DNA of 64,000 bases from Gammaproteobacteria bacterium (GTDB lineage Bacteria > Pseudomonadota > Gammaproteobacteria > Natronospirales > JAJUFS01), in the NCBI GenBank assembly GCA_029263725.1, contig JAJUFS010000001.1, positions 19,439 through 83,438 on the forward strand. Direction: 5' to 3'. Both the position numbers and the translations under genes were made by a program. The notes beneath the pieces were generated by a model. It worked only from the letters and a program-made list of their open reading frames with translations, was not told the origin of the DNA and did not search any database. Positions within the stretch are counted from its first letter, which is position 1. Every line of letters begins with the position of its first letter. Of this stretch, positions 6,786-53,562 are shown one piece after another.

Positions 6786-8591
6786 ATGACCAACGCCATC
6801 AAGGATTACAACGTCGTCGACCACACCTATGACGTGATCGTGGTCGGCGCCGGCGGCGCCGGCCTGCGCGCGACCGTCGGCCTCGTGGAGCTGGGCTTCA
6901 AGACCGCGAACATCACCAAGGTCTTCCCGACGCGCTCGCACACCGTCGCGGCCCAGGGCGGCATTTCCGCCTCGCTCGGCAACATGGGCGAGGACGACTG
7001 GCGCTGGCACATGTACGACACCGTCAAGGGTTCCGACTGGCTCGGCGACCAGGACGCGATCGAGTACATGTGCAAGGAAGCGCCGCAGGCGGTGATCGAG
7101 CTCGAGCATTACGGCATGCCGTTCTCGCGCACCGAGGATGGCCGGATCTACCAGCGCCCCTTCGGCGGCATGACCACGCATTTCGGCAAGGGCACCGCGC
7201 AGCGCACCTGCGCCGCGGCTGACCGCACCGGCCACGCCATGCTGCACACGCTGTACCAGCAGGCGCTGAAGCACCAGGCGGAATTCTTCATCGAGTACTT
7301 CGCGCTCGATCTCATCATGGAAGACGGCGCCTGCCGTGGCGTGATCGCCTGGAACCTGGCGGATGGCACGATCCATCGCTTCCGCGCGCAGATGGTGATC
7401 CTTGCTACCGGCGGTTACGGCCGCGCCTATTTCTCCTGCACCTCCGCGCACACCTGCACCGGCGACGGCAATGCCATGGTGCTGCGTGCCGGCCTGCCGC
7501 TGCAGGACATGGAATTCGTGCAGTTCCACCCGACCGGCATCTACGGCTCGGGCTGCCTCATCACCGAGGGCGTGCGCGGCGAGGGCGGTTACCTGACCAA
7601 CTCCGAGGGCGAGCGCTTCATGGAGCGCTACGCGCCGAACGCCAAGGATCTTGCCTCGCGCGACGTGGTGTCGCGTTCGATGACCATCGAGATCCGCGAA
7701 GGCCGCGGCGTCGGTCCGGAGAAGGACCACATCTATCTCAACCTCATGCATCTCGGCCCCGAGGTGATCAACAAGCGCCTGCCGGGCATCGCCGAGACCG
7801 CGAAGATCTTCGCCGGCGTGGACGTGACGAAGCAGCCCATCCCGGTGATCCCGACGGTTCACTACAACATGGGCGGCATCCCGGCGCTGTACACCGGCGA
7901 GGTGGTGACGCTGAAGGACGGCAACCCGAACACGGTCGTGCCGGGCCTGATGGCGGTGGGCGAGGCAGCCTGCGTGTCCGTGCATGGCGCGAACCGTCTC
8001 GGTTCCAACTCGCTGCTGGACCTGGTGGTCTTCGGCCGCGCCGCGGCCAGGCGCTGCGGGGAGATTCTCACGCCGGGCGCGCGCCAGAAGCCGCTGCCGG
8101 AGAACGCCGGCGAGGCGACCTTCCAGCGCCTTACCCGGCTGCGCGAAACCGCCTCCAACACCTCGGGCCGCCCGACGGCGGAAATCCGCCTCGAGATGCA
8201 GCGGACCATGCAGAACCATGCCGCGGTGTTCCGCACCGGCGAGGTCATGGAGGAAGGTCTCGAGAAGCTCAAGGAAACCTTCAAGTCCTTCCGGCAGGTG
8301 CGCGTCTCCGACCGCAGCATGATCTGGAACTCCGATCTGGTCGAAACCCTTGAGCTCGAGAACCTGCTCGGTCAGGCGATGGTGACGCTCAATTCCGCCA
8401 TCAATCGCAAGGAGTCCCGCGGCGCGCACGCCCGCGAGGATTATCCGGAGCGCGACGACCAGAACTGGATGAAGCACACGCTGGCGTGGATTGGCCCGGA
8501 AGGCGAGGTCAGCCTCGATTACCGGCCGGTGCACCTGCGCACGCTGACCGACGAAGTGGAAGTGGTGCAGCCGCAGAAGCGCACTTACTGA
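6786..8591 (+). CDS. sdhA: succinate dehydrogenase flavoprotein subunit
   Basis: [16 protein letters not shown] fold, [13 protein letters not shown] (covalent FAD His), [18 protein letters not shown]. Confidence 0.96.
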
Positions 8592-14236: not shown

Positions 14237-14718
14237 GCGCCGCCGTGCAGGAATTCATCACCGAACGCGCCCGCGTCCTGCGAGTGGAAGCGGGCATCGC
14301 CTGGGTGAGTTGCGAAAGCCAGGCAGGCTGCGCGCGTTGCGCGGCCGGGCAGGGCTGCGGCGGCGGCATCTTCTCGAAACTGCTGCGCGGCCGCCTCGAG
14401 GATCTGCCGGTGCCCACCGATCTTGCGCTCGCTCCGGGCGACTTCGTGCTCATCGGCCTTGCGCAATCCGCGGTGCAGAACGCCTCGCTGCTGCTGTACG
14501 GCCTGCCGCTCGCCGGCGTCATCCTCGGTGCGCTTGGCGGATGGCTGCTGGGTGCGAGCGATCCTGCCACCTTCCTCGGACTGGCCGCGGGCTTCGCGGC
14601 CGGCCTGCTGCTGGCGCGCCGGGGCGCGCGCCGGCTTGCCGGCAATTCCTCGCTGCAGCCGGTGTTGCTGCGCAAGCTGGCCGAAGGCGAACCTTGTTCC
14701 GCGGGGCCGTTGGCCTGA
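14233..14718 (+). CDS. rseC: SoxR-reducing system protein RseC/MucC family
   Basis: ATGA overlap with the rseB stop. N-terminal Cys-rich segment (CESQAGCARCAAGQGCGGG) followed by two TM helices. Confidence 0.8.
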   Translation: MSAAVQEFITERARVLRVEAGIAWVSCESQAGCARCAAGQGCGGGIFSKLLRGRLEDLPVPTDLALAPGDFVLIGLAQSAVQNASLLLYGLPLAGVILGALGGWLLGASDPATFLGLAAGFAAGLLLARRGARRLAGNSSLQPVLLRKLAEGEPCSAGPLA

Positions 14719-25799: not shown

Positions 25800-26042
25800 T
25801 CACTCGTGCACCGGCACCTCTTCCTGCTCGGCCGAAACCTGCTTGAGTTCGTCCTCGGCAAGCTGGCCGTCCTGGTTCTGGTCGTAGGCGTCGAAGTTCG
25901 CGGAAATCGCTTCCACGGAGGCGGCTTCTTCCCTGGAGAGCTGGCCGTCGCCATCCTGGTCGTGATCGGCAATCCTGACTTCTTCGTTGGCAAACGCCGC
26001 GCCGAACGCCGCGGCAAGGGCAATCGCGAGAATCTTCTTCAT
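25800..26042 (-). CDS. small secreted EF-hand calcium-binding protein
   Basis: Signal peptide MKKILAIALAAAFGAAFA. Two canonical 12-residue EF loops, DQDGDGQLSREE and DQNQDGQLAEDE. Confidence 0.75.
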   Translation of the reverse strand: MKKILAIALAAAFGAAFANEEVRIADHDQDGDGQLSREEAASVEAISANFDAYDQNQDGQLAEDELKQVSAEQEEVPVHE

Positions 26043-26227
26043 GGAAACGTCTCCTGTCATGTCTTGCGGGGAGCAGAATGCTCACCCTTCGTCATGCACG
26101 AGACGTGCCACGTCGAAAGCCGCGCCGTTGTGCCATCGTTGACGATGGCCTGTCGCCGGGAGGCAACGCAGTCATGTCAAATGCGTGCAGGCGCGCGGTT
26201 CATGCGCGTCGCCGGCAGGCGACGCGC

Positions 26228-28194: not shown

Positions 28195-28971
28195 TCAGGC
28201 TGGCGCCGCCATGCCTTCGATGATGAGTTCCTCGCGGTGCGCCGCGCGCAGGCGGTGCAGCAGCTTGTCCGCGGCATGGAACATGCCGTTGAGGTCGCGC
28301 GGGGCGGGCGAGGCGGTGACCGCGCCGATGCGCGCGTGCACGCGCCGCGCGTCCAGCGCGAGGCGGACCTTCTCCAGGGCCACGTGCGCCGCCGCCTGGC
28401 CGGTCTCGGGCAGAAGGATCGCGAATTCGCCGGCTTCCAGCCGTCCCGCCACATCGCTGATGCGCAGGCTGTCGGCGAGCACTTCGGCGACCTGGCGACA
28501 TTGACCGTCCTGGTCGGCGTCGAGGGTGAGATAGGCCAGCGTGACCGGCTCGCCATTGCGATGGCAGACCGCCAGCACCGAGCCGGCGCGCTCGAAGAAG
28601 CCGTGGCGGCTCGCCAGCCCGGTTTCCTCGTCGACCGCGGCGAGTTCGTGGGCGGTTTCGCGGTTCACGTGCAGCCAGCGCGCCAGCAGGGTGACCACCA
28701 CGAACAGCGCGCCCTGCAGCAGCAGGTTGGTCAGCCAGCTGGCCGGCTCGAAGTAGGGACTGCCGGCCTCCAGCGAGACCATGGCCCACAGGCCGGCGGC
28801 GAGCACCGCGGCGATGATCGCGGTGGTGCGCTCCAGGTACCAGCCCGCGAAGATCAGCGGCACGAAGTACAGCGGCCCGGCGTACATGGCGAAGCGGCCG
28901 TAGTGGTCGATGGCGGCCGCGGCCAGGATGCCCGCGAACACCAGCAGCATGATCAGGAAGCGGTTGTTCAT
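28195..28971 (-). CDS. membrane GGDEF-domain protein with a degenerate active site (EAGEF) and a retained RxxD I-site
   Basis: About four N-terminal TM helices. DEETGLASRHGFF matches D.LTGL.NRR.F. RISDVAGRLEAGEFAILLP aligns with RxxD-x5-GGDEF. The FK.iND..GH..GD segment is shortened to LDADQDGQ. Confidence 0.8.
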   Translation of the reverse strand: MNNRFLIMLLVFAGILAAAAIDHYGRFAMYAGPLYFVPLIFAGWYLERTTAIIAAVLAAGLWAMVSLEAGSPYFEPASWLTNLLLQGALFVVVTLLARWLHVNRETAHELAAVDEETGLASRHGFFERAGSVLAVCHRNGEPVTLAYLTLDADQDGQCRQVAEVLADSLRISDVAGRLEAGEFAILLPETGQAAAHVALEKVRLALDARRVHARIGAVTASPAPRDLNGMFHAADKLLHRLRAAHREELIIEGMAAPA

Positions 28972-28977
28972 GAATGT

Positions 28978-29026
28978 CCTCCCCGCACCGTTCCGGTTTC
29001 CGGAAACGGTATTACACGCGGGGAGG
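28978..29026 (-). promoter_or_regulatory. hairpin sequestering the Shine-Dalgarno of the GGDEF gene
   Basis: Minus-strand RNA reads CCUCCCCGC-(31 nt containing the palindrome GTTTCCGGAAAC)-GCGGGGAGG-acauuc-AUG. The GGAGG lies in the 3' arm. Confidence 0.45.
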
Positions 29027-29070
29027 ACGGGCTGTGCGGATGATTGCGTAGGGGATGCAACCGAGTCCGC

Positions 29071-29400
29071 TCACATGGCGATGCAGGCGGTCCAGAGCTC
29101 GTCGGTGAACAGCAGGCGCGTCGTGCCGCAGATGCGGACGTGGTTCATGGTGCAGGCATCGCCGTCCTCGTCGACGATCTTGACGTCGTAGTTGCCGCAG
29201 GGAATGTTCTGCAGCGTCAGCTTGCTGCTGCTTTCCAGCGTGTCGTCGGCGAGCTGGTCGTCGCCCCACTCCGAGTCGGAGGTGGACGAGACGTAGAGGT
29301 ACCAGAAGTCCCAGCTGCTGCCGTTGTGAATGACGAGGTCGGCGGCATGGGCGGTGAGCGGCAGCATGCCCGCAGCCAGCAGGATGATCAGGCGTTTCAT
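29071..29400 (-). CDS. small secreted four-cysteine protein (109 aa), unknown function
   Basis: Signal peptide MKRLIILLAAGMLPLTAHA. The mature part has four Cys (CGNYDVKIVDEDGDAC, RICG, TAC). G/C-rich third-position codon usage matches neighbouring genes. Confidence 0.6.
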   Translation of the reverse strand: MKRLIILLAAGMLPLTAHAADLVIHNGSSWDFWYLYVSSTSDSEWGDDQLADDTLESSSKLTLQNIPCGNYDVKIVDEDGDACTMNHVRICGTTRLLFTDELWTACIAM

Positions 29401-29567
29401 GTAAGTCCCCCCGGTGAAGATGGCCGGGAAGCGCCCGGCCGCAACGATACGAAGCTTTGCCGATGGGGAAGGGGCTGGCAAGCGTTCGGGCGGCAAACGG
29501 CGTGGAACGGCGAGTTTTTGGGGTGGCGCGTTTCACAAGCGGCATCGGCCCCCACGCAGACCGGGGC

Positions 29568-29592
29568 AAAAAAACCCCGCCTTTCGGCGGGG
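29568..29592 (-). terminator. intrinsic terminator after the lipoprotein gene
   Basis: Minus strand reads CCCCGCC-gaaa-GGCGGGG followed by UUUUUUU. It lies 54 nt after the stop at 29646. Confidence 0.8.
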
Positions 29593-29645
29593 CAAGCTCC
29601 ACTCGCGATGGAGACTGGCAGGAGGTTGTTGTTGTCCGGCGTGCC

Positions 29646-31139
29646 TTACAGGGCCGGCACGGTGTCTGCGGGCAGTTCGATCATGTAGGTGTCGACGTTG
29701 TCGTCGTTGCCCGAGTTCCAGTTCGAGTTGAACAGCACCTTGGTGAAGTCGCGGTTCACCGCCGCGTGCGGCTCGGAGAAGTAGTCGCCGCCCTTGTTGT
29801 AGGTGTGCGCCAGGTTGAGGATGCGCGGGTTCGGCTTCAGTTCCACCGCCATCACCTTGTTGGCGTACCAGCCGCTGCCGGCAACTTTCTCCTTGTAGGT
29901 CGAGATCAGCACCCAGCCCGGCTTGTAGAAGTTGCGCGCCGAGAGATGCATGGCGGTGGAGTTGCCGCCGGTGTAGATCTGCCACAGGTTGGTGGACTGG
30001 CCGTTGGCGAGGTCCCACATCCGCACCCAGCCGGAGTCGTAGTCGCCGGCGATCACCACGTCGCGGCCGTCGGCGTCCAGGCCCAGGTCGGAGTGCGGGC
30101 TCTTCGGCGCAAGACCGATGGCGAAGTTGAAGTCGCGCGAGAAGGACATCATGCCGCAGGGCTTGCTGCGCGTGCCGAGCGAGCCGCCCGAGCAGGCCGG
30201 CGAGCTCCAGGAGGGCACCACGTACTCGCCCGTCGCGCTGATGCTGATGTGATCCGGCGCCGGCACGCCGCCGCCGTCCTTCGCGAAGTCATACACGCCG
30301 GCGATCTCGTCCTTGAGCATGTCGTAGGAAATCATGCCAAGGCCCTTGTTGTTCGAATCCAGCACCACCAGGCCCCACCAGCGCGCGTCCATGGACGGCG
30401 AGCCTTCGGTCTTGGTCGAGACCTTGGCGGCGGACGGCCAGATCTGCTTGATGCTGGTGGCATCATGCCCCGCGATCTTCTGCACGCGGGTGAAGTCGGT
30501 CACCACGTTCTTCTCGCCGGTGGCGACGTTGTACTCGGTGATGGTCATGCCGCCGCCGTTCGGGATCACGTACATGACGTCCGGGTGCGTCGGATGCCAC
30601 TGCGGTTCGACGCCGGCGCCGTTGAGGTCGAGCTTCTTGATGAGCTTCAGCGTCTGGGTGTCGTACAGGTACCAGGACTGGCCGCGCGAATAGACGATGA
30701 AGCGCGAGTCGTCCGCGTTGAACGGCTGGCGGCGCGCATAGTCGTTGCGCGCGAAGCCGGACAGGCCTTCGGCGTCGGCATCGGTGGCGCGCACGATGCA
30801 GGAGCCGTAGACCGGATCGTTGTAGGGCTTGCCCTTGGCGGGCTTGGCGAAGCCGGAAAGCGGCTTGCTCGCATCCTGGCCTTCGACCAGCGCGAAGCTG
30901 CCGCTGTAGGTCGCGGCACAGGGGCCGGACTTGAAGCTGATGGCTTCGAGGCCGTCATCCGAACCCGGATCGGTCGTGGTCGGCGGCGCGCTGTCCGCGG
31001 GCACTTCGACCGCCGGGGGCGGGTTCGCGCCGGAAGGCGCGGTGTCCGGGGCGCTACCGCCGCCACCGCCACCGCCGCCGCAGCCGGCAATGAGAAGGCC
31101 AAGAGGGAGGATCATCTTTGCGAGGTTGGAGTTCCACAT
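29646..31139 (-). CDS. beta-propeller-like lipoprotein of unknown function, downstream of tandem c-di-GMP riboswitches
   Basis: AGGUGA lies 7 nt before the ATG at 31139. Lipobox LLIAGC is followed by Gly8 and a Pro/Ala/Thr-rich linker. The remaining roughly 400 aa is W/Y/G-rich and resembles TolB/DPP-IV-like propeller repeats. Confidence 0.75.
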   Translation of the reverse strand: MWNSNLAKMILPLGLLIAGCGGGGGGGGSAPDTAPSGANPPPAVEVPADSAPPTTTDPGSDDGLEAISFKSGPCAATYSGSFALVEGQDASKPLSGFAKPAKGKPYNDPVYGSCIVRATDADAEGLSGFARNDYARRQPFNADDSRFIVYSRGQSWYLYDTQTLKLIKKLDLNGAGVEPQWHPTHPDVMYVIPNGGGMTITEYNVATGEKNVVTDFTRVQKIAGHDATSIKQIWPSAAKVSTKTEGSPSMDARWWGLVVLDSNNKGLGMISYDMLKDEIAGVYDFAKDGGGVPAPDHISISATGEYVVPSWSSPACSGGSLGTRSKPCGMMSFSRDFNFAIGLAPKSPHSDLGLDADGRDVVIAGDYDSGWVRMWDLANGQSTNLWQIYTGGNSTAMHLSARNFYKPGWVLISTYKEKVAGSGWYANKVMAVELKPNPRILNLAHTYNKGGDYFSEPHAAVNRDFTKVLFNSNWNSGNDDNVDTYMIELPADTVPAL

Positions 31140-31257
31140 TGTCTGATCACCTGAATCTCGTTTGCGAGTGGAACCGGCCCGCAGCGCCCGAAGGCGGGGT
31201 TCAGGGATCGATCAGGAACGCGGAGATCGTTGCTGGCCGCTGCCATGGCTGGCGGCG

Positions 31258-31329
31258 GGCAACCCCGCTGTCCTGGGCAATGCCCTTCGGACCGGTGGCT
31301 TTGCGTCCCCGCCTCTCGACGGGTTTGCC
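31258..31329 (-). promoter_or_regulatory. c-di-GMP-I (GEMM-I) riboswitch aptamer, gene-proximal copy
   Basis: Minus-strand RNA is GGCAAACCCGUCGAGAGGCGGGGACGCAAAGCCACCGGUCCGAAGGGCAUUGCCCAGGACAGCGGGGUUGCC. It matches the Vc2-type core GGCAAACC..(GNRA hairpin)..GACGCAAAGCC.CCGG...AGCGGGGUU.CC. Confidence 0.85.
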
Positions 31330-31436
31330 TTTTCGCGACTGGCGCGCACACGAATGCCGCGCCGGGCGCACGCTTCCTTGCGTGTTCTCTTGACCGGCGC
31401 GGTGAGTGACAGGTGAAGGTCTGACCGGCTTGGCCG

Positions 31437-31499
31437 GGCAACCCCGCTGTCCGCTTCCGGACCGGTGGCTTTGCGTCCCCGCCTCTCGACGGGTTTGCC
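31437..31499 (-). promoter_or_regulatory. c-di-GMP-I (GEMM-I) riboswitch aptamer, distal copy
   Basis: Minus-strand RNA is GGCAAACCCGUCGAGAGGCGGGGACGCAAAGCCACCGGUCCGGAAGCGGACAGCGGGGUUGCC. A 40-nt stretch is identical to the proximal copy; only the P2 tip differs. Confidence 0.85.
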
Positions 31500-31639
31500 T
31501 TTGCTGCCTGTCGCGTCCTGCGAGCGGTGCGTCCCTTGCTTCAGACGGGGGCGATCTTAGGGATCGGGGGGAGGGTCAACGGTGACGGGGGTCACGTTTC
31601 GGGCCGAGCCAGGCTGGAAAAATCCTTTAATAACAATAA

Positions 31640-31669
31640 GTTATGAAGATTACCCTCAGAACGTGAGGG
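31640..31669 (-). terminator. candidate terminator after the GT4 fusion gene, within an AT-rich spacer
   Basis: Minus strand reads CCCUCA-cguuc-UGAGGG followed by an A/U-rich run (uaaucuucauaacuuauuguuauuaaaggauuuuu). This is the only AT-rich patch in the locus and may also hold the riboswitch leader promoter. Confidence 0.4.
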
Positions 31670-31705
31670 GATTTCCCTCAGCGTACCGTAGGGCGCCGGC
31701 GACAG

Positions 31706-33949
31706 TCAGGCGGAAGCGCCCATCGCGCGGCGGGCGCGCTTGGCCAGCAGGTGGGCGTAGATGGCGAGTACCGACTCGGTGAAGCGGTCGATGGAGTGAT
31801 TGCGGGCGAAAGCGACGGCCGCCTCGGACATCTCCCGGCGCAGCGGCTCGCATTCCAGCAGCTCGCGCACCCGGCGGCACCAGGCGCGGCGATCCTCGGC
31901 GGTCTTGAAACCGGTGACGCCGTCGCGGATGACGTCGTCGATGCCGCTGGAGCGCACGGCGATGCAGGGCAGGCCCGCCGCCATGGCCTCGAGCAGCACC
32001 ATGCCCTGGGTTTCGGTCTTGGAGGCGAACAGGAACAAGTCGCCAAGGTGGTAATAGCGCGGGATCACCTCCGGCTTCACCGCGCCGGCGAGGATGATCA
32101 CCTCGGCAAGCCCAAGGTCGCCGATGCGCGCCTCGATGCGCCTGCGCTCCGGTCCGTCGCCGATGATCACGAAGCGGAATGGCTGGTGCAGCTCGCGTTT
32201 CAGCAGCGCGACCGCCTCCAGCAGGAAATCCAGGTTCTTCTCGCGGCTGAGGCGCGACACGGTGACCAGCACGCGCTCCTCGCCGATGCCGAGCTTGCCT
32301 TTCAGCGCCGCGACTGCTCCGGCGTCGACGCGGTTGAAGCGCTCGAACTCGATGCCGGTGGGCAGCACGAAGATGTCGGTCTTCACGCCGATCAGGCGCA
32401 GGTATTCCTCCGCGGAGTAGGTCGGCACGATCACGCCGTCGCACTTGTTGGAGAAGCGTCTCACCAGGTAGTGCGAGATCAGGTTGCGGAACAGCGGCCC
32501 CGGGATGCTTCTGACGAAATGCGCGTAGTGCTCAAGGCGCGTGTGATAGGTGTAGACCGCCGGCACGCCGAGGCGCCGCGCCCACAACAGTCCGAGGGAG
32601 CCGCACCAGATCGGGTGGTGGCAGTGGATGATGTCGGGGCGGAAGTCGCGGATGGCGCGGTGGACGCGCGGATGAAAGATGTTGGCGAGGCGGAACTCGC
32701 GCTTCTCGCCCCAGATGAACAGCGGCGGCAGGCGGCAGCTGCCATCGCGAGGCGCATCGCCGCGGTCGCGGCGGCGGTAGTCGGGCGCGACAACCAGCGT
32801 CTCGCGGCCCGCGGCGTCAAGGCCGCGGCGCAGGCGGTCGATGGAAATCGGCACGCCGCCGATGAACGGCAGGTAGTTGTTGGCGAACATCGCCACGCGT
32901 CGCACCTCGTCGAGCCAGGGCGCGCCGTCGACGTCGAAGCTCGGGTAATAGTCGCGGTCGGTGAAGATCAGCACGTACAGCTTGATGGCGATCAGCGTGA
33001 AGATGCTGACGATGAGCAGGAAGTTCAGGTAGCCGACGTAGAACAGCGAGTGGATGAACAGCCACAGGCCCTCCAGCGTGCGGAACACCGGATGCTGGCC
33101 GATGTCCAGCGGCTGGGCGGCGATGTCCACCCGCGCGCCGTCCACGCTGACCTTCACGTAGTGATAGAAGCTGTCGTCGTCGTTCATCACCAGGCCGCCG
33201 GCGCCGCCGGTGGTGACGTACTCCGTGCCGCCTTCGCTGTGGCGGGCGAACACCGGCAGGTTGGCGGAGAACACCGCGCGCACGCCATGGCGCGAAAACA
33301 GTTGAACGAGCCGTTCGCGCACTTCCTCGAAGGCGAAGTGATCCTCCGGCGAGGCGAACCAGTTGTCGCTGCCGCTTTCGAACAGCGGATGGCTCATGAA
33401 TACGAAGGCGTGCCGCTCGGTGCGTTCGCGCAGCTGTTCCTCCAGCCAGTGCAGCTGCCAGTCGAACGAGGTCTCGCCGGTGCTGTCGAGGAAGATGAAG
33501 CGGCTGTTGCCGGCGGTGAAGCTGAAGAAGTAGGGGCCGAAGCGGTCGTAATAGCGGAACGCGCCGAAGTTGCTCGCCTCGCGCGGCCCGAAGGTGAGCA
33601 GGCAGGGCACATCGAGATACCCGAGCGAGCCGCTCAGCGCGCGGTACTTGTCCTCGCCGCCGCCGCTCACCGCGTTGCCGGCTGACACCACGAAGTCCAC
33701 GCCGGAGGCGTTCAGCATCGGCAGTATCTTGCGCTCGAAGATGCCGATGGAATTGTTGATGTTGCCGACCACCGCGAAGCTGAACCGCTCCTTGCCCTCG
33801 AGCGAGGCCTCGATCTCGCGGATGGCGCGCGGGTGCATGGTCTCGTAGTCGCCGGCGAAGAAATTCAGATAGACCTTGTAGCCGACCAGCAGCAGCACGA
33901 TGGCCACGTTCAGCCAGAAGACGAGCTTGAGCCTCGCGCGCGCCGCCAT
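31706..33949 (-). CDS. fusion protein: N-terminal TM, degenerate metallophosphoesterase-like domain, TM segment, GT4-family glycosyltransferase
   Basis: C-terminal half has GT4 features (ANNYLPFIGGV, EX7E as ETQGMVLLEAMAAGLPCIA). N-terminal half has the calcineurin-like layout with motifs substituted: GNINN for DxH, AGNAV for GD, GPRE for GNHE. Confidence 0.8.
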   Translation of the reverse strand: MAARARLKLVFWLNVAIVLLLVGYKVYLNFFAGDYETMHPRAIREIEASLEGKERFSFAVVGNINNSIGIFERKILPMLNASGVDFVVSAGNAVSGGGEDKYRALSGSLGYLDVPCLLTFGPREASNFGAFRYYDRFGPYFFSFTAGNSRFIFLDSTGETSFDWQLHWLEEQLRERTERHAFVFMSHPLFESGSDNWFASPEDHFAFEEVRERLVQLFSRHGVRAVFSANLPVFARHSEGGTEYVTTGGAGGLVMNDDDSFYHYVKVSVDGARVDIAAQPLDIGQHPVFRTLEGLWLFIHSLFYVGYLNFLLIVSIFTLIAIKLYVLIFTDRDYYPSFDVDGAPWLDEVRRVAMFANNYLPFIGGVPISIDRLRRGLDAAGRETLVVAPDYRRRDRGDAPRDGSCRLPPLFIWGEKREFRLANIFHPRVHRAIRDFRPDIIHCHHPIWCGSLGLLWARRLGVPAVYTYHTRLEHYAHFVRSIPGPLFRNLISHYLVRRFSNKCDGVIVPTYSAEEYLRLIGVKTDIFVLPTGIEFERFNRVDAGAVAALKGKLGIGEERVLVTVSRLSREKNLDFLLEAVALLKRELHQPFRFVIIGDGPERRRIEARIGDLGLAEVIILAGAVKPEVIPRYYHLGDLFLFASKTETQGMVLLEAMAAGLPCIAVRSSGIDDVIRDGVTGFKTAEDRRAWCRRVRELLECEPLRREMSEAAVAFARNHSIDRFTESVLAIYAHLLAKRARRAMGASA

Positions 33950-33951
33950 GA

Positions 33952-35010
33952 TCAGCCCCGCGCGACTTCGCGATGGGTGATGACCGCGCCGATGAGCATG
34001 CCGAGATGCGCGCTCAGGAAGCGCCAGACGACCACCACCAGCAGCAGGTGCGAGGCCTGGGCGAGGTCGGCGAACAGGAAGCCGAACACGCCCTCGGCGA
34101 TACCGGCGGCGCCCGGCGTGGGCGAGAAGTACATGATGAAGGTCAGCACCGTCATCAGCCCGAGCACCAGGAACCAGTCGATCTCGTAGCCGAGTGCGAC
34201 CAGGATCAGCGCCGGGAAGGAGAACAGCGTCACCAGGTACAGCACGCTGTTGGCGAGGGACAGCAGCACGTTGCCCCAGCCGCCGCGGAAGTAGTCGCGG
34301 AAGCCGCGCGCGAAGTGCAGCAGCTCACGCTCGGCCGCGAAGCGCCAGTCACGGTGGCGGCGCGAGCTAATCATGCGCAGCCAGCGCATTCCCTTCAGCA
34401 GGCCGTGCGTCGGCGCCAGCAGCCATTGCGGCCGCAGCAGCGCGAAGCCGAAGAAGGCGAGATAGGCGAGCAGGATCAGCAGCAGGTAGAACAGGAACTG
34501 GCCGCGCAGCGGCACGTCCTGCAGCCGCGGGATGACGAGCAGCAGCACCGGGGTGGCGGCGAAGATCAGCACCATCACGATCATGGTGCGGATGGTGGTC
34601 GCGCTGGTGCCGGTGCCCACCGGCACGCCCAGCCTGCGCAGGTACCAGATCTGCGCGAAGCCGCCGCCGGTCACCAGCGGGGTGATGTTGGAGAAGAACA
34701 GGTTGATGAAGACCAGCTTGACCATTCCCGTGGGGGGAATGTCATGGCCCAGCGCCCTGAGGGTGTAGTGCAGCCGCGCGCCGTCGGTATACCAGTGCAG
34801 CAGCAGCAGGGCGGCCGCGGCGGCGAGAAAGCCGGGCTGCAGCAGCCGCCGGTCGAACACCAGGCCCTCGTTGGCCACGTCCCGGTAGACCACCGCCAGC
34901 CCGATCGCCGTCAGCGAGATGAAGATCAGCGCAAACAGCGGCAGGCGCCATCGCGGTCCTATGGGAGTGCTCTGGATCTCGTCGGGCATGGCGGCGTCTT
35001 GCAGGCGCAT
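33952..35010 (-). CDS. flippase-like membrane protein (lysylphosphatidylglycerol-synthase TM-region / UPF0104 family)
   Basis: About eight TM helices, FINLFFSNITPLVTGGGFAQIWYL motif typical of TIGR00374-like proteins. Its stop lies 2 nt before the start of the GT4 fusion gene. Confidence 0.7.
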   Translation of the reverse strand: MRLQDAAMPDEIQSTPIGPRWRLPLFALIFISLTAIGLAVVYRDVANEGLVFDRRLLQPGFLAAAAALLLLHWYTDGARLHYTLRALGHDIPPTGMVKLVFINLFFSNITPLVTGGGFAQIWYLRRLGVPVGTGTSATTIRTMIVMVLIFAATPVLLLVIPRLQDVPLRGQFLFYLLLILLAYLAFFGFALLRPQWLLAPTHGLLKGMRWLRMISSRRHRDWRFAAERELLHFARGFRDYFRGGWGNVLLSLANSVLYLVTLFSFPALILVALGYEIDWFLVLGLMTVLTFIMYFSPTPGAAGIAEGVFGFLFADLAQASHLLLVVVVWRFLSAHLGMLIGAVITHREVARG

Positions 35011-35113
35011 CAACGCGTGAAGGTAGCCCGCCGCCGCGGGTGGCGGAATATGTGAAGTCCTGTAGGAAAGCGGGCCGACAGGACAGGGATTTCCGTTTAC
35101 AATGCGCGGCCTC

Positions 35114-35190
35114 GCCCTCGTAGCTCAGCTGGATAGAGCGTCCCCCTCCTAAGGGGAAGGTCGCAGGTTCGACTCCTGCCGAGGGCGCCA
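35114..35190 (+). tRNA. tRNA-Arg (anticodon CCT)
   Basis: Cloverleaf folded by hand: acceptor GCCCTCG/CGAGGGC, D arm GCTC/GAGC, anticodon stem TCCCC/GGGGA with loop CTCCTAA, T arm GCAGG-TTCGACT-CCTGC, encoded CCA. Confidence 0.93.
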
Positions 35191-53037: not shown

Positions 53038-53562
53038 ATGAGCAGGATCAAGGTTCTTGGAGTGCTGGCTTCTCTGCTGCTCGCGGCCGGTTGCGCCTCG
53101 ACGGACACGCAGGAGGTGCCTGAGGATTCCCGCGAGACCGTGGGCACGGAAACGGGACGCGAGGCCGGCGGCGTCGGCCAGCCGGAGCGCATGAGCATCG
53201 ACGAGCGCCTCCAGGATCCGGCCGATCCGCTGTCGCAGCGCGTGGTCTACTTCGAGTTCGATCGCAGCGACATTCCGCGCGAGGAGCTGGCGACGCTGGA
53301 CGCGCATGCCCGCTTCCTGGTCGAGAACCCGAACGTGCGGATTCGCCTCGAAGGCCATGCCGACGAACGCGGCAGCCGCGAATACAACATCGGCCTCGGC
53401 GATCGCCGTGCGCAGGCCGTGCGCCGAATCCTGCTGTTCCAGGGCGTGTCCGCGGACCAGATCACCACGGTGAGCTATGGCGAGGAACGGCCGGCGGTGC
53501 AGGGCCAGGGCCCCGAGGTTTGGGCCAAGAACCGCCGCGTTGAAATCATCTACCTGCGCTGA
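53038..53562 (+). CDS. pal: peptidoglycan-associated lipoprotein Pal
   Basis: Lipobox LAAGC. OmpA-like domain (VYFEFDRSDI, LEGHADERGSREYNIGLGDRRA). Confidence 0.95.
   Translation: MSRIKVLGVLASLLLAAGCASTDTQEVPEDSRETVGTETGREAGGVGQPERMSIDERLQDPADPLSQRVVYFEFDRSDIPREELATLDAHARFLVENPNVRIRLEGHADERGSREYNIGLGDRRAQAVRRILLFQGVSADQITTVSYGEERPAVQGQGPEVWAKNRRVEIIYLR

Follow-up and report, generated by a model that had tools for sequence, protein, structure and literature searches.

A stretch of 64,000 nt from a gammaproteobacterium (Gammaproteobacteria bacterium, GCA_029263725.1, contig JAJUFS010000001.1, forward-strand positions 19,439-83,438; hereafter the window) carries tandem riboswitches for the second messenger cyclic dimeric GMP (c-di-GMP) within a string of minus-strand genes, and raises the question of whether these genes constitute a single envelope module. 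An earlier note on this DNA had proposed such a c-di-GMP-governed module for window positions 28195-35010, with a flippase-like gene, a pseudo-phosphoesterase–GT4 fusion, the riboswitches, a β-propeller lipoprotein, a small secreted four-cysteine (4-Cys) protein and a membrane protein with a degenerate GGDEF domain, and had suggested that it serves as a biofilm-matrix or adhesin switch. An inventory of this interval from the open reading frame (ORF) listing and profile searches (Pfam, NCBIfam, Rfam) recovered all listed features in the described minus-strand order (Table 1), with the exception of a candidate terminator behind the GT4 gene, which proved to be a 6-bp hairpin without U-tract that was not called by the terminator scan (fold z −2.4). 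The evidence presented below makes it reasonably probable that the interval comprises four separate units rather than one module, and it appears, on balance, that only the second unit, the propeller lipoprotein gene, is wired to c-di-GMP through RNA. The finding is a new instance of a known regulatory kind, in which a c-di-GMP-I riboswitch controls an envelope protein. The module-level interpretation is partly supported: aptamers with a canonical pocket do lie directly upstream of an envelope lipoprotein gene, and the pairing of the two is conserved in relatives, whereas the union of six genes into one module did not hold.

Conservation of the riboswitch-propeller cassette

By exact-protein look-ups, six assemblies of this organism (gammaproteobacterial metagenome-assembled genome, MAG, GCA_035305905.1) were identified that encode an identical lipoprotein, and all of them carry the same gene string. 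Related genomes have lipoprotein identities of 54-60% and a common tRNA-Arg/sucAB neighbourhood; in these, a cassette of one to three aptamers and a propeller gene was found in seven other assemblies from approximately six genomes. In total, aptamers were located upstream of propeller homologues in L003 (a further assembly of the same species), L011, L012, L015, L017, L018, L024, and L027, and in L011, L012, and L018 the cassette lies directly beside tRNA-Arg and sucAB.

The arrangement around the cassette varied. L011 has three aptamers before a short propeller gene and one before a paralogue with an Ig-like Big_5 domain, with no flippase-GT4 pair within 10 kb. L012 likewise has a single aptamer at the paralogue, and its short gene is preceded by two; no pair was seen on this contig, which ends about 5.5 kb downstream. 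In L015, two aptamers, the propeller gene and a strong terminator are followed by the flippase-GT4 pair. In L018/L019, three aptamers precede the short gene and one the paralogue, and in L017 a single aptamer, cut by the contig end, precedes the Big_5 paralogue; in both cases DUF4398 and OmpA-like genes come next and the pair stands after those. L024 and L027 have one aptamer before the propeller gene and uninformative flanks. When the whole gene string was compared across these loci it was not kept outside the species of the window, and only the succession of aptamer(s), propeller gene and terminator recurred. These three elements appear to be the conserved core.

A scan of metagenomes yielded 79 loci with propeller homologues (38-60% identity), among which aptamers were confined to the closest clade (at least 54% identity). 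The flippase and the GT4 fusion each occurred once, both in one locus that is a re-sampling of L018, and the GGDEF-like and 4-Cys genes did not occur at all. A single-sequence scan of genome contigs with the lipoprotein gave four distant homologues (34-38% identity), none with a riboswitch. The lipoprotein gene of the window is followed by an intrinsic terminator with an 8-bp stem, seven pairs of which are G-C (GCCCCGCC-GAAA-GGCGGGGT, then TTTTTTT), and the L015 orthologue by one with a 10-bp G-C stem and T7. A strong terminator closes the lipoprotein unit in both organisms, and the cassette is self-contained. A link between the propeller family and c-di-GMP-I riboswitches has not been reported in the literature that could be searched. 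Outside the clade, a weak match to the covariance model built here (see below) was noted in L048 at 7310-7391 (26.4 bits, E 0.0012, 45% G+C), 2.6 kb upstream of a propeller homologue of 42% identity; it may represent a divergent GEMM aptamer or a chance match.

Table 1. Features of the interval and propeller loci of other lineages. Positions refer to the window, except in the last three rows, where they refer to the locus named.
Feature	Positions	Strand	Basis and remarks
Flippase-like membrane protein (LPG_synthase_TM)	33952-35013	minus	PF03706, TIGR00374
747-aa pseudo-metallophosphoesterase-GT4 fusion	31706-33949	minus	GT4 Pfam domains; start overlaps or abuts the stop of the flippase-like gene
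Distal c-di-GMP-I aptamer	31433-31508	minus	Rfam RF03167, 61.6 bits, E 4e-12
Proximal c-di-GMP-I aptamer	31254-31338	minus	Rfam RF03167, 68.6 bits, E 4e-14
Expression platform	31140-31253	minus	element GCGTTCCTGA at ~31221-31212; Shine-Dalgarno sequence AGGTGA at 31152-31147; start codon at 31139
497-aa outer-membrane β-propeller lipoprotein	29646-31139	minus	lipobox LIAGC; predicted fold
Intrinsic terminator of the lipoprotein unit	29567-29593 (stem 29593-29574)	minus	terminator scan
110-aa secreted 4-Cys protein	29071-29403	minus	signal peptide MKRLIILLAAGMLPLTAHA and four Cys, read from the ORF translation
Hairpin burying the Shine-Dalgarno sequence of the GGDEF-like gene	28976-29028	minus	folding versus shuffles
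258-aa membrane protein, degenerate GGDEF	28195-28971	minus	PF00990, 2.8e-11
tRNA-Arg(CCU), landmark	35114-35190	plus	tRNA call
Propeller paralogues in exopolysaccharide locus, gammaproteobacterial contig L013	8164-11767
Propeller paralogues in exopolysaccharide locus, Caldimonas thermodepolymerans L022	7309-11253
Propeller paralogues in exopolysaccharide locus, Lysobacteraceae MAG L023	7665-11399

Ligand-binding pocket of the aptamers

The two aptamers of the window precede the lipoprotein ATG, on its strand, by 115 and 294 nt, and have a 45-nt exact core in common at a period of 170 nt. Both were assigned with the highest score to the Rfam family RF03167 (the 'GGC' variant), with lower-scoring matches of the same clan also above threshold, and on a clade-specific covariance model built here (R1) the proximal and distal copies scored 94.4 and 84.3 bits, respectively. 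RF03167 was the best family for most aptamers of L011, L012, and L018, too (60-73 bits, gathering score 59). Closely related aptamers in L015, L018, and L027 were matched best by the canonical family RF01051 (63-68 bits, gathering score 35).

The ligand-contacting positions were read from every aptamer collected after alignment to the Vc2 aptamer. Each of the 16 distinct cores, taken from the window and its relatives, has equivalents of G20, A47, and C92 (G-GC..., GACGC-AA, ...UU-GC). The label 'GGC' is said to denote a G in place of A47, as reportedly described by Weinberg et al. in 2017, and the consensus of RF03167 indeed has a G right after GACGC. In the cmscan alignment both window aptamers have an A at this position, as do all 16 cores, and this A is also that of the c-di-GMP-binding Vc2 aptamer. 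Thus, the replacement that defines the c-di-GMP-I-GGC variant (G for A47, consensus GACGC-G-A) is not present in the window aptamers, and the attributes of GEMM-I aptamers (clan CL00126/RF01051) that can be read from sequence are present, namely a score above the gathering threshold, the pocket nucleotides, and a sense 5′-leader position with an expression platform. The conserved G20/A47/C92 pocket in 16 of 16 cores, together with the assignment of relatives to RF01051, indicates that the window RNAs would be canonical c-di-GMP-I aptamers, whose peripheral sequence happens to resemble the RF03167 seed. The highest-scoring family could here wrongly imply an unknown ligand, and best calls at clan level need to be checked against the positions that define a variant.

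Aptamer copy number

Comparison of window positions 31139-31706 (minus strand) with the same-species assembly L003 (3577-3972) revealed a loss of exactly 170 nt from the spacer of the latter. Both ends of the deletion fall inside the 45-nt exact repeat that forms the aptamer core, the remaining spacer is identical at 396 of 396 positions, and the one aptamer left joins the 5′ half of the distal copy to the 3′ half of the proximal copy. As the 170-nt loss is bounded by the repeat and leaves a chimeric survivor, recombination between tandem copies, or a recent duplication, would therefore toggle the locus between one and two riboswitches, with a residual chance that the single aptamer of L003 stems from assembly collapse instead. 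With one to three aptamers per propeller gene among the relatives, riboswitch copy number appears to be evolutionarily labile.

Riboswitches of the c-di-GMP-I class commonly occur in tandem, an arrangement considered to make the dose response sharper (PMC9481103). The window resembles the known tandem systems (Vc2 of Vibrio cholerae and Bc3-5 of Bacillus thuringiensis; PMC9481103, PMC4759541) in aptamer architecture, in the GNRA loop on P1b, in the G20/A47/C92 pocket and in the placement of the aptamers in a 5′ leader, ahead of an envelope or surface gene, and a steeper response is likewise expected from its complete tandem copies. It differs in that its platform has no intrinsic terminator, so that control is probably translational, and in that the copy number of this type varies from one to three among close relatives and even between assemblies of the same species.

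Expression platform and predicted direction of switching

The terminator scan detected no intrinsic terminator on the coding strand, neither between the aptamers nor between aptamer and ORF, and a model of transcription attenuation was dropped for this reason. An alignment of five orthologous leaders (A4) revealed a shared post-aptamer element (CCGGUA...GCGCGUUCCUGA) and an invariant region comprising the Shine-Dalgarno (SD) sequence and the start codon (CAGGUGA...AUGUGGAAC); a related element (CGCGUUCC) was found in the leaders of paralogues. By its complementarity, the switching element could pair either with CAGGACAGCG, the 3′ strand of aptamer stem P2, as predicted in the RNAalifold consensus, or with GGAAC/CAGG of the initiation region. 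When the aptamer helices were forced to form, the predicted unpaired probability of the SD sequence fell in all five orthologous leaders (from 0.43 to 0.02, 0.48 to 0.20, 0.55 to 0.22, 0.51 to 0.17, and 0.55 to 0.39). For a wider window around the ribosome-binding site (RBS), tested with ten leaders, the drop in accessibility was clear in four, slight in three and absent in three, and was reversed in none. The unconstrained minimum free energy (MFE) fold of the leader was uninformative (z = −0.66). A simple hairpin of the SD sequence and AUG (GUUCCAC/GUGGAAC) was rejected as sequestering element, as it is not kept in L011 (AUGAUGAAC with GGUCCAC).

On the basis of the conserved switching element and the constrained folding, a translational OFF switch is somewhat favoured. 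Control would most likely be exerted at translation initiation of the lipoprotein gene. In the absence of ligand, the conserved element GCGUUCCUGA would engage the 3′ strand of the P2 stem of the aptamer; once c-di-GMP has locked the aptamer, this element would instead pair with the SD/start region. High c-di-GMP would then shut off lipoprotein synthesis, a direction that has to be taken as tentative, and the tandem copies would make the response sharper. Under this model the locus is similar to the class I OFF riboswitch Cdi-1 upstream of zmpI (PPEP-1) in Clostridioides difficile (PMC6366702), where a secreted or surface-located enzyme that works against attachment or matrix is repressed by the messenger and made only at low c-di-GMP. 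In contrast to the gammaproteobacterial β-propeller lipoprotein of the window, for which the switch direction is only predicted, ZmpI is a metalloprotease of a Gram-positive organism and is controlled by transcription termination.

The propeller lipoprotein and its family

Behind its lipobox, the mature lipoprotein has a Gly/Pro-rich linker (~residues 20-69), disordered in the AlphaFold2 model, and a β-propeller (~residues 70-497). The model had a predicted local distance difference test score (pLDDT) of 86 and a predicted template modelling score (pTM) of 0.83, and its nearest solved folds were seven-bladed β-propellers. The highest-ranking match in the PDB was the polysaccharide lyase family 22 (PL22) oligogalacturonate lyase 3c5m (E 6e-13, template modelling (TM) score 0.51/0.65, with 0.65 on the target, 12% sequence identity), and the remainder were generic WD40 propellers. 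The likeness to 3c5m lies in the fold, with the seven-bladed propeller as best structural match. What sets the window protein apart is its lipoprotein nature, its long and flexible linker and the lack of any match to the lyase at the sequence level. The lipoprotein matched no Pfam or NCBIfam model, and searches of the propeller sequence against PDB and Pfam with all 41 members of the family alignment gave nothing significant (TolB with E ~0.1 and scattered WD40 matches).

The family is large: a threshold of E ≤ 1e-3 gives 3582 representatives, and the stricter E ≤ 1e-30 leaves at least 725 clusters (50% identity clusters). Its members are often fused to Ig-like (Big_5), PKD or Flg_new_2 domains. 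The residues that are invariant in the 41 homologues are mainly Trp, Tyr, Arg, Asp, Glu, and His, a pattern that we infer to be typical of carbohydrate-active sites. In three unrelated lineages (Table 1) and in metagenome loci, propeller genes, often as two to four paralogues, are embedded in clusters with genes for Wzy_C, MurJ, AsnB, polysaccharide deacetylase, and GT4 proteins; such an exopolysaccharide-cluster context was found in 9 of the 29 metagenome loci with a length of 15 kb or more. The best NCBIfam matches of these cluster genes were models of the XrtA/PEP-CTERM system, all below cut-off. One of the propeller ORFs in L013 overlaps a galE-like ORF at the stop codon of the latter. The L013, L022, and L023 loci also carry exosortase-type 'hydrolase 1/2' genes and nonribosomal peptide synthetase/polyketide synthase genes.

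The occurrence of relatives in exopolysaccharide loci, together with a polysaccharide lyase as nearest solved fold, argues that the lipoprotein probably acts on an exopolysaccharide, by binding or by cleaving it. In this respect the matrix role put forward in the earlier note is plausible, by way of the family's links to exopolysaccharide loci in other lineages. Combined with the predicted OFF control, the exopolysaccharide role would make the lipoprotein a factor of matrix remodelling or dispersal that is produced at low c-di-GMP, following a logic like that of c-di-GMP-repressed ZmpI (PMC6366702). The riboswitch provides a free functional label, the decision between sessile and motile life, for a large propeller family that has no model, and the XrtA/PEP-CTERM-like exopolysaccharide context points to a matrix polymer as target, which makes the family experimentally approachable.

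The flippase-GT4 pair

The flippase-like protein was matched by PF03706 (1.7e-31, 110 bits, cut-off 33) and TIGR00374 (85 bits, cut-off 43), and scored far lower with the model of GpgF, the flippase for glucosaminyl-phosphatidylglycerol (GlcN-PG; NF053789, 39.8 bits, cut-off 320). The product of the adjoining gene consists of a transmembrane segment, a pseudo-metallophosphoesterase domain, another transmembrane segment and a GT4 glycosyltransferase. Its C-terminal half was assigned to GT4 by PF00534 (1e-39); the N-terminal domain was only weakly similar to Metallophos (PF00149, E 0.0067, 17.3 bits, below the cut-off of 21.5), with a GpdQ-type phosphohydrolase (E 0.002) and a purple acid phosphatase as best PDB sequence matches. 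In place of the metallophosphoesterase motifs DxH, GD, GNH[DE], H, and GH it has GNINN (GNxNN in the family), AGNA, FGPRE/FGxHE, and GGAGG, and these replacements are invariant or near-invariant across 13 full-length homologues of the fusion. As the motifs are replaced in all 13 aligned members, the loss is a property of the whole family and not local decay, and the designation as pseudo-phosphoesterase is upheld. The domain (N-terminal 345 residues, alignment A3) is flanked by the predicted transmembrane segments, and its identity from Marinobacter to Desulfobacterales is ~60%. The flanking segments suggest that it is probably periplasmic, and the N-terminal domain looks like a conserved pseudoenzyme joined to a lipid-type GT4.

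Among NCBIfam models, the fusion was matched best by α-monoglucosyldiacylglycerol (MGlcDAG) synthase (NF049988, 188 bits, cut-off 400), followed by the N-acetylglucosaminyl-phosphatidylglycerol (GlcNAc-PG) synthase GpgS (NF053787, 120 bits, cut-off 480). In agreement with the earlier note, which had set the locus apart from pel, psl, bcs, pga, and lap, no NCBIfam or Pfam model of those systems reached its cut-off with the five proteins of the interval. The pair is alike to gpgS/gpgF of gpgSDF, the genes for GlcN-phosphatidylglycerol synthesis in Pseudomonas aeruginosa (PMC12713373) in joining a GT4 lipid glycosyltransferase to an LPG_synthase_TM flippase-like protein, and differs in that it lacks a deacetylase gene and scores far under the equivalog cut-offs. 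With the PlcP-Agt lipid-renovation operon (PMC8528852) it has in common a metallophosphoesterase-fold domain next to a diacylglycerol-type GT4; it departs from that operon by the fusion of this domain to the GT4 and by the loss of the metal ligands throughout the family. Both are resemblances only, and membership in either system is not established. From the sub-threshold matches to MGlcDAG synthase and to GlcNAc-PG synthase and flippase, and by analogy to gpgSDF and PlcP-Agt, we infer that the pair is a membrane-glycolipid module rather than a polysaccharide exporter. This first unit would glycosylate a membrane lipid on the cytoplasmic face and move the product to the outer leaflet.

Full-length homologues of the fusion (56-63% identity) were found in Marinobacter, Pseudomonas, Idiomarina, Marinimicrobium, and Desulfobacterales. 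A complete Marinobacter genome (L020) has a two-gene flippase-GT4 unit in an unrelated neighbourhood with no propeller gene or riboswitch nearby, and in Pseudomonas benzenivorans the fusion stands alone. The pair thus appears to be an independent module and an occasional, rearranged neighbour of the cassette within one clade. As a fusion of pseudo-phosphoesterase and lipid-type GT4 with an MprF-like flippase that is widespread in Marinobacter, Pseudomonas, and Idiomarina, it represents a separate small lead in membrane-lipid biology.

Evaluation of alternative readings

Several observations weigh against separate units with a single c-di-GMP-governed cassette among them, and are best considered together with the readings they would support. 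If the flippase, the GT4 fusion, the riboswitch-lipoprotein unit, the small protein and the GGDEF receptor formed one envelope module, they would make, export and process a surface glycoconjugate under dual control of c-di-GMP by RNA and protein. This is improbable, though consistent with the common orientation and short gaps of all genes and with the RxxD motif retained by the GGDEF protein. The spacer from the GT4 gene to the riboswitches yielded neither a convincing terminator nor a convincing sigma-70 promoter, so that transcription of the upstream operon may continue into the riboswitch-lipoprotein unit. The flippase-GT4 pair lies within ~4 kb of the riboswitch-propeller genes in the window, L015, L017, and L018, despite their different orders, and this recurrent proximity could reflect a functional link. 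However, the riboswitches are situated downstream of both the flippase and the GT4 gene and can therefore not regulate them, the lipoprotein unit is bounded by strong terminators, and no such pair accompanies the cassette in L011 or in 78 of the 79 metagenome loci. Moreover, the pair in Marinobacter and the fusion in Pseudomonas occur without a propeller gene, the GGDEF-like and small proteins were found at no related locus, and the GT4 domain resembles lipid glycosyltransferases rather than polymer synthases. Division into separate units, with RNA control confined to the lipoprotein gene, therefore remains our preferred reading. It would lose its link to c-di-GMP if the aptamers were true members of the GGC variant that sense another ligand. 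For this variant, which gave the best score with the window aptamers and most of those in L011, L012, and L018, a ligand has reportedly never been established, and its authors are said to have suggested that another signal may be sensed. We regard this as highly improbable: all 16 cores have an A, not a G, after GACGC and keep G20 and C92, kin aptamers in L015, L018, and L027 belong with RF01051, and the weaker matches of the window aptamers to other families of the clan passed their thresholds, too.

The propeller could be a non-enzymatic adhesin or scaffold that c-di-GMP switches ON, serving attachment and not matrix turnover, like the collagen adhesin Cap behind Bc2 or CD2831. Paralogues carry Big_5, PKD or Flg_new_2 domains of a kind typically seen in surface adhesins, non-catalytic WD40 scaffolds make up most of the fold matches, and class I riboswitches can act as ON switches, as Bc2 does (PMC6366702). 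In addition, the predicted switch direction is weak: covariation support for the switching helices is nil, with all relevant columns invariant, thermodynamic predictions are weak for RNA of 68% G+C, and the change in accessibility was negligible in several leaders. The similarity to PL22 is likewise modest, with generic WD40 proteins as the other top matches, which makes an enzymatic role tentative. Even so, an ON-controlled adhesin is rather unlikely, since constrained folding never increased RBS accessibility with the aptamer formed, the invariant Arg, Asp, Glu, His, and Trp of the 41 homologues resemble a carbohydrate-active site, and the propeller gene of L013 overlaps a galE-like gene in an exopolysaccharide operon. 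The most elaborate version of the dispersal reading, in which the lipoprotein represents a new family of exopolysaccharide-cleaving or -modifying proteins and acts, within this gammaproteobacterial clade, as an OFF-controlled dispersal enzyme made only on a fall in c-di-GMP, while the nearby flippase-GT4 pair supplies a glycolipid that primes, anchors or is trimmed, is unlikely as a whole.

Neighbouring genes

The GGDEF-like gene is preceded by a hairpin that buries its SD sequence (GGAGGA, 5 nt before the start codon), as had been proposed; it is composed of an 11-bp stem (GUCCUCCCCGC/GCGGGGAGGAC) and an inner stem, and has an MFE of −52.2 kcal/mol (z = −4.5), a value reached by 0 of 200 shuffles. 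The product has a significant GGDEF domain match, and its alignment to the diguanylate cyclase 3ign set RISD-VAGRL-EAGEF against RQSD-SAGRY-GGEEF. The active site (A-site) motif GG[DE]EF is thus replaced by EAGEF, and the RxxD of the inhibitory site (I-site) is retained as RISD, five residues upstream of the A-site, which agrees with the earlier description of a GGDEF protein with only its I-site intact. The protein is predicted to be unable to make c-di-GMP and may bind it through the retained RxxD. Degenerate GGDEF receptors of the PopA and PelD types have likewise lost the A-site and kept the RxxD at the canonical five-residue spacing. The window protein differs from them in its N-terminal membrane domain and is not conserved beside the cassette in any relative.

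The 4-Cys protein matched no Pfam or NCBIfam model. Homologues of the GGDEF-like and 4-Cys proteins, looked for at propeller loci only, were found beside none of ~90 distinct propeller loci of other organisms, and both would be species-specific neighbours outside the conserved cassette. The tRNA-Arg(CCU) gene beside the interval is a landmark, and compositional evidence for a horizontally acquired island next to it was not obtained (G+C 63-68% throughout).

In L012, L017, and L018, the Big_5 propeller paralogue is followed by a pair of DUF4398 and DUF4398/OmpA-like genes (e.g. L018 12137-13410). This pair is absent from the window locus, where the sole OmpA-like similarity lies at 53230-53550. 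L012 also has a match to the small RNA sRNA-Xcc1 (RF02221, 58.4 bits) at 14243-14329, downstream of the Big_5 paralogue and immediately before a 107-aa ORF. A few genes downstream of the GGDEF-like gene, the window encodes an 86-aa secreted protein with EF-hand-like DxDxDG repeats (DHDQDGDGQLS, DQNQDGQLA; 25800-26060, minus strand), which adjoins a WYL-domain regulator according to the annotation of the identical locus L001.

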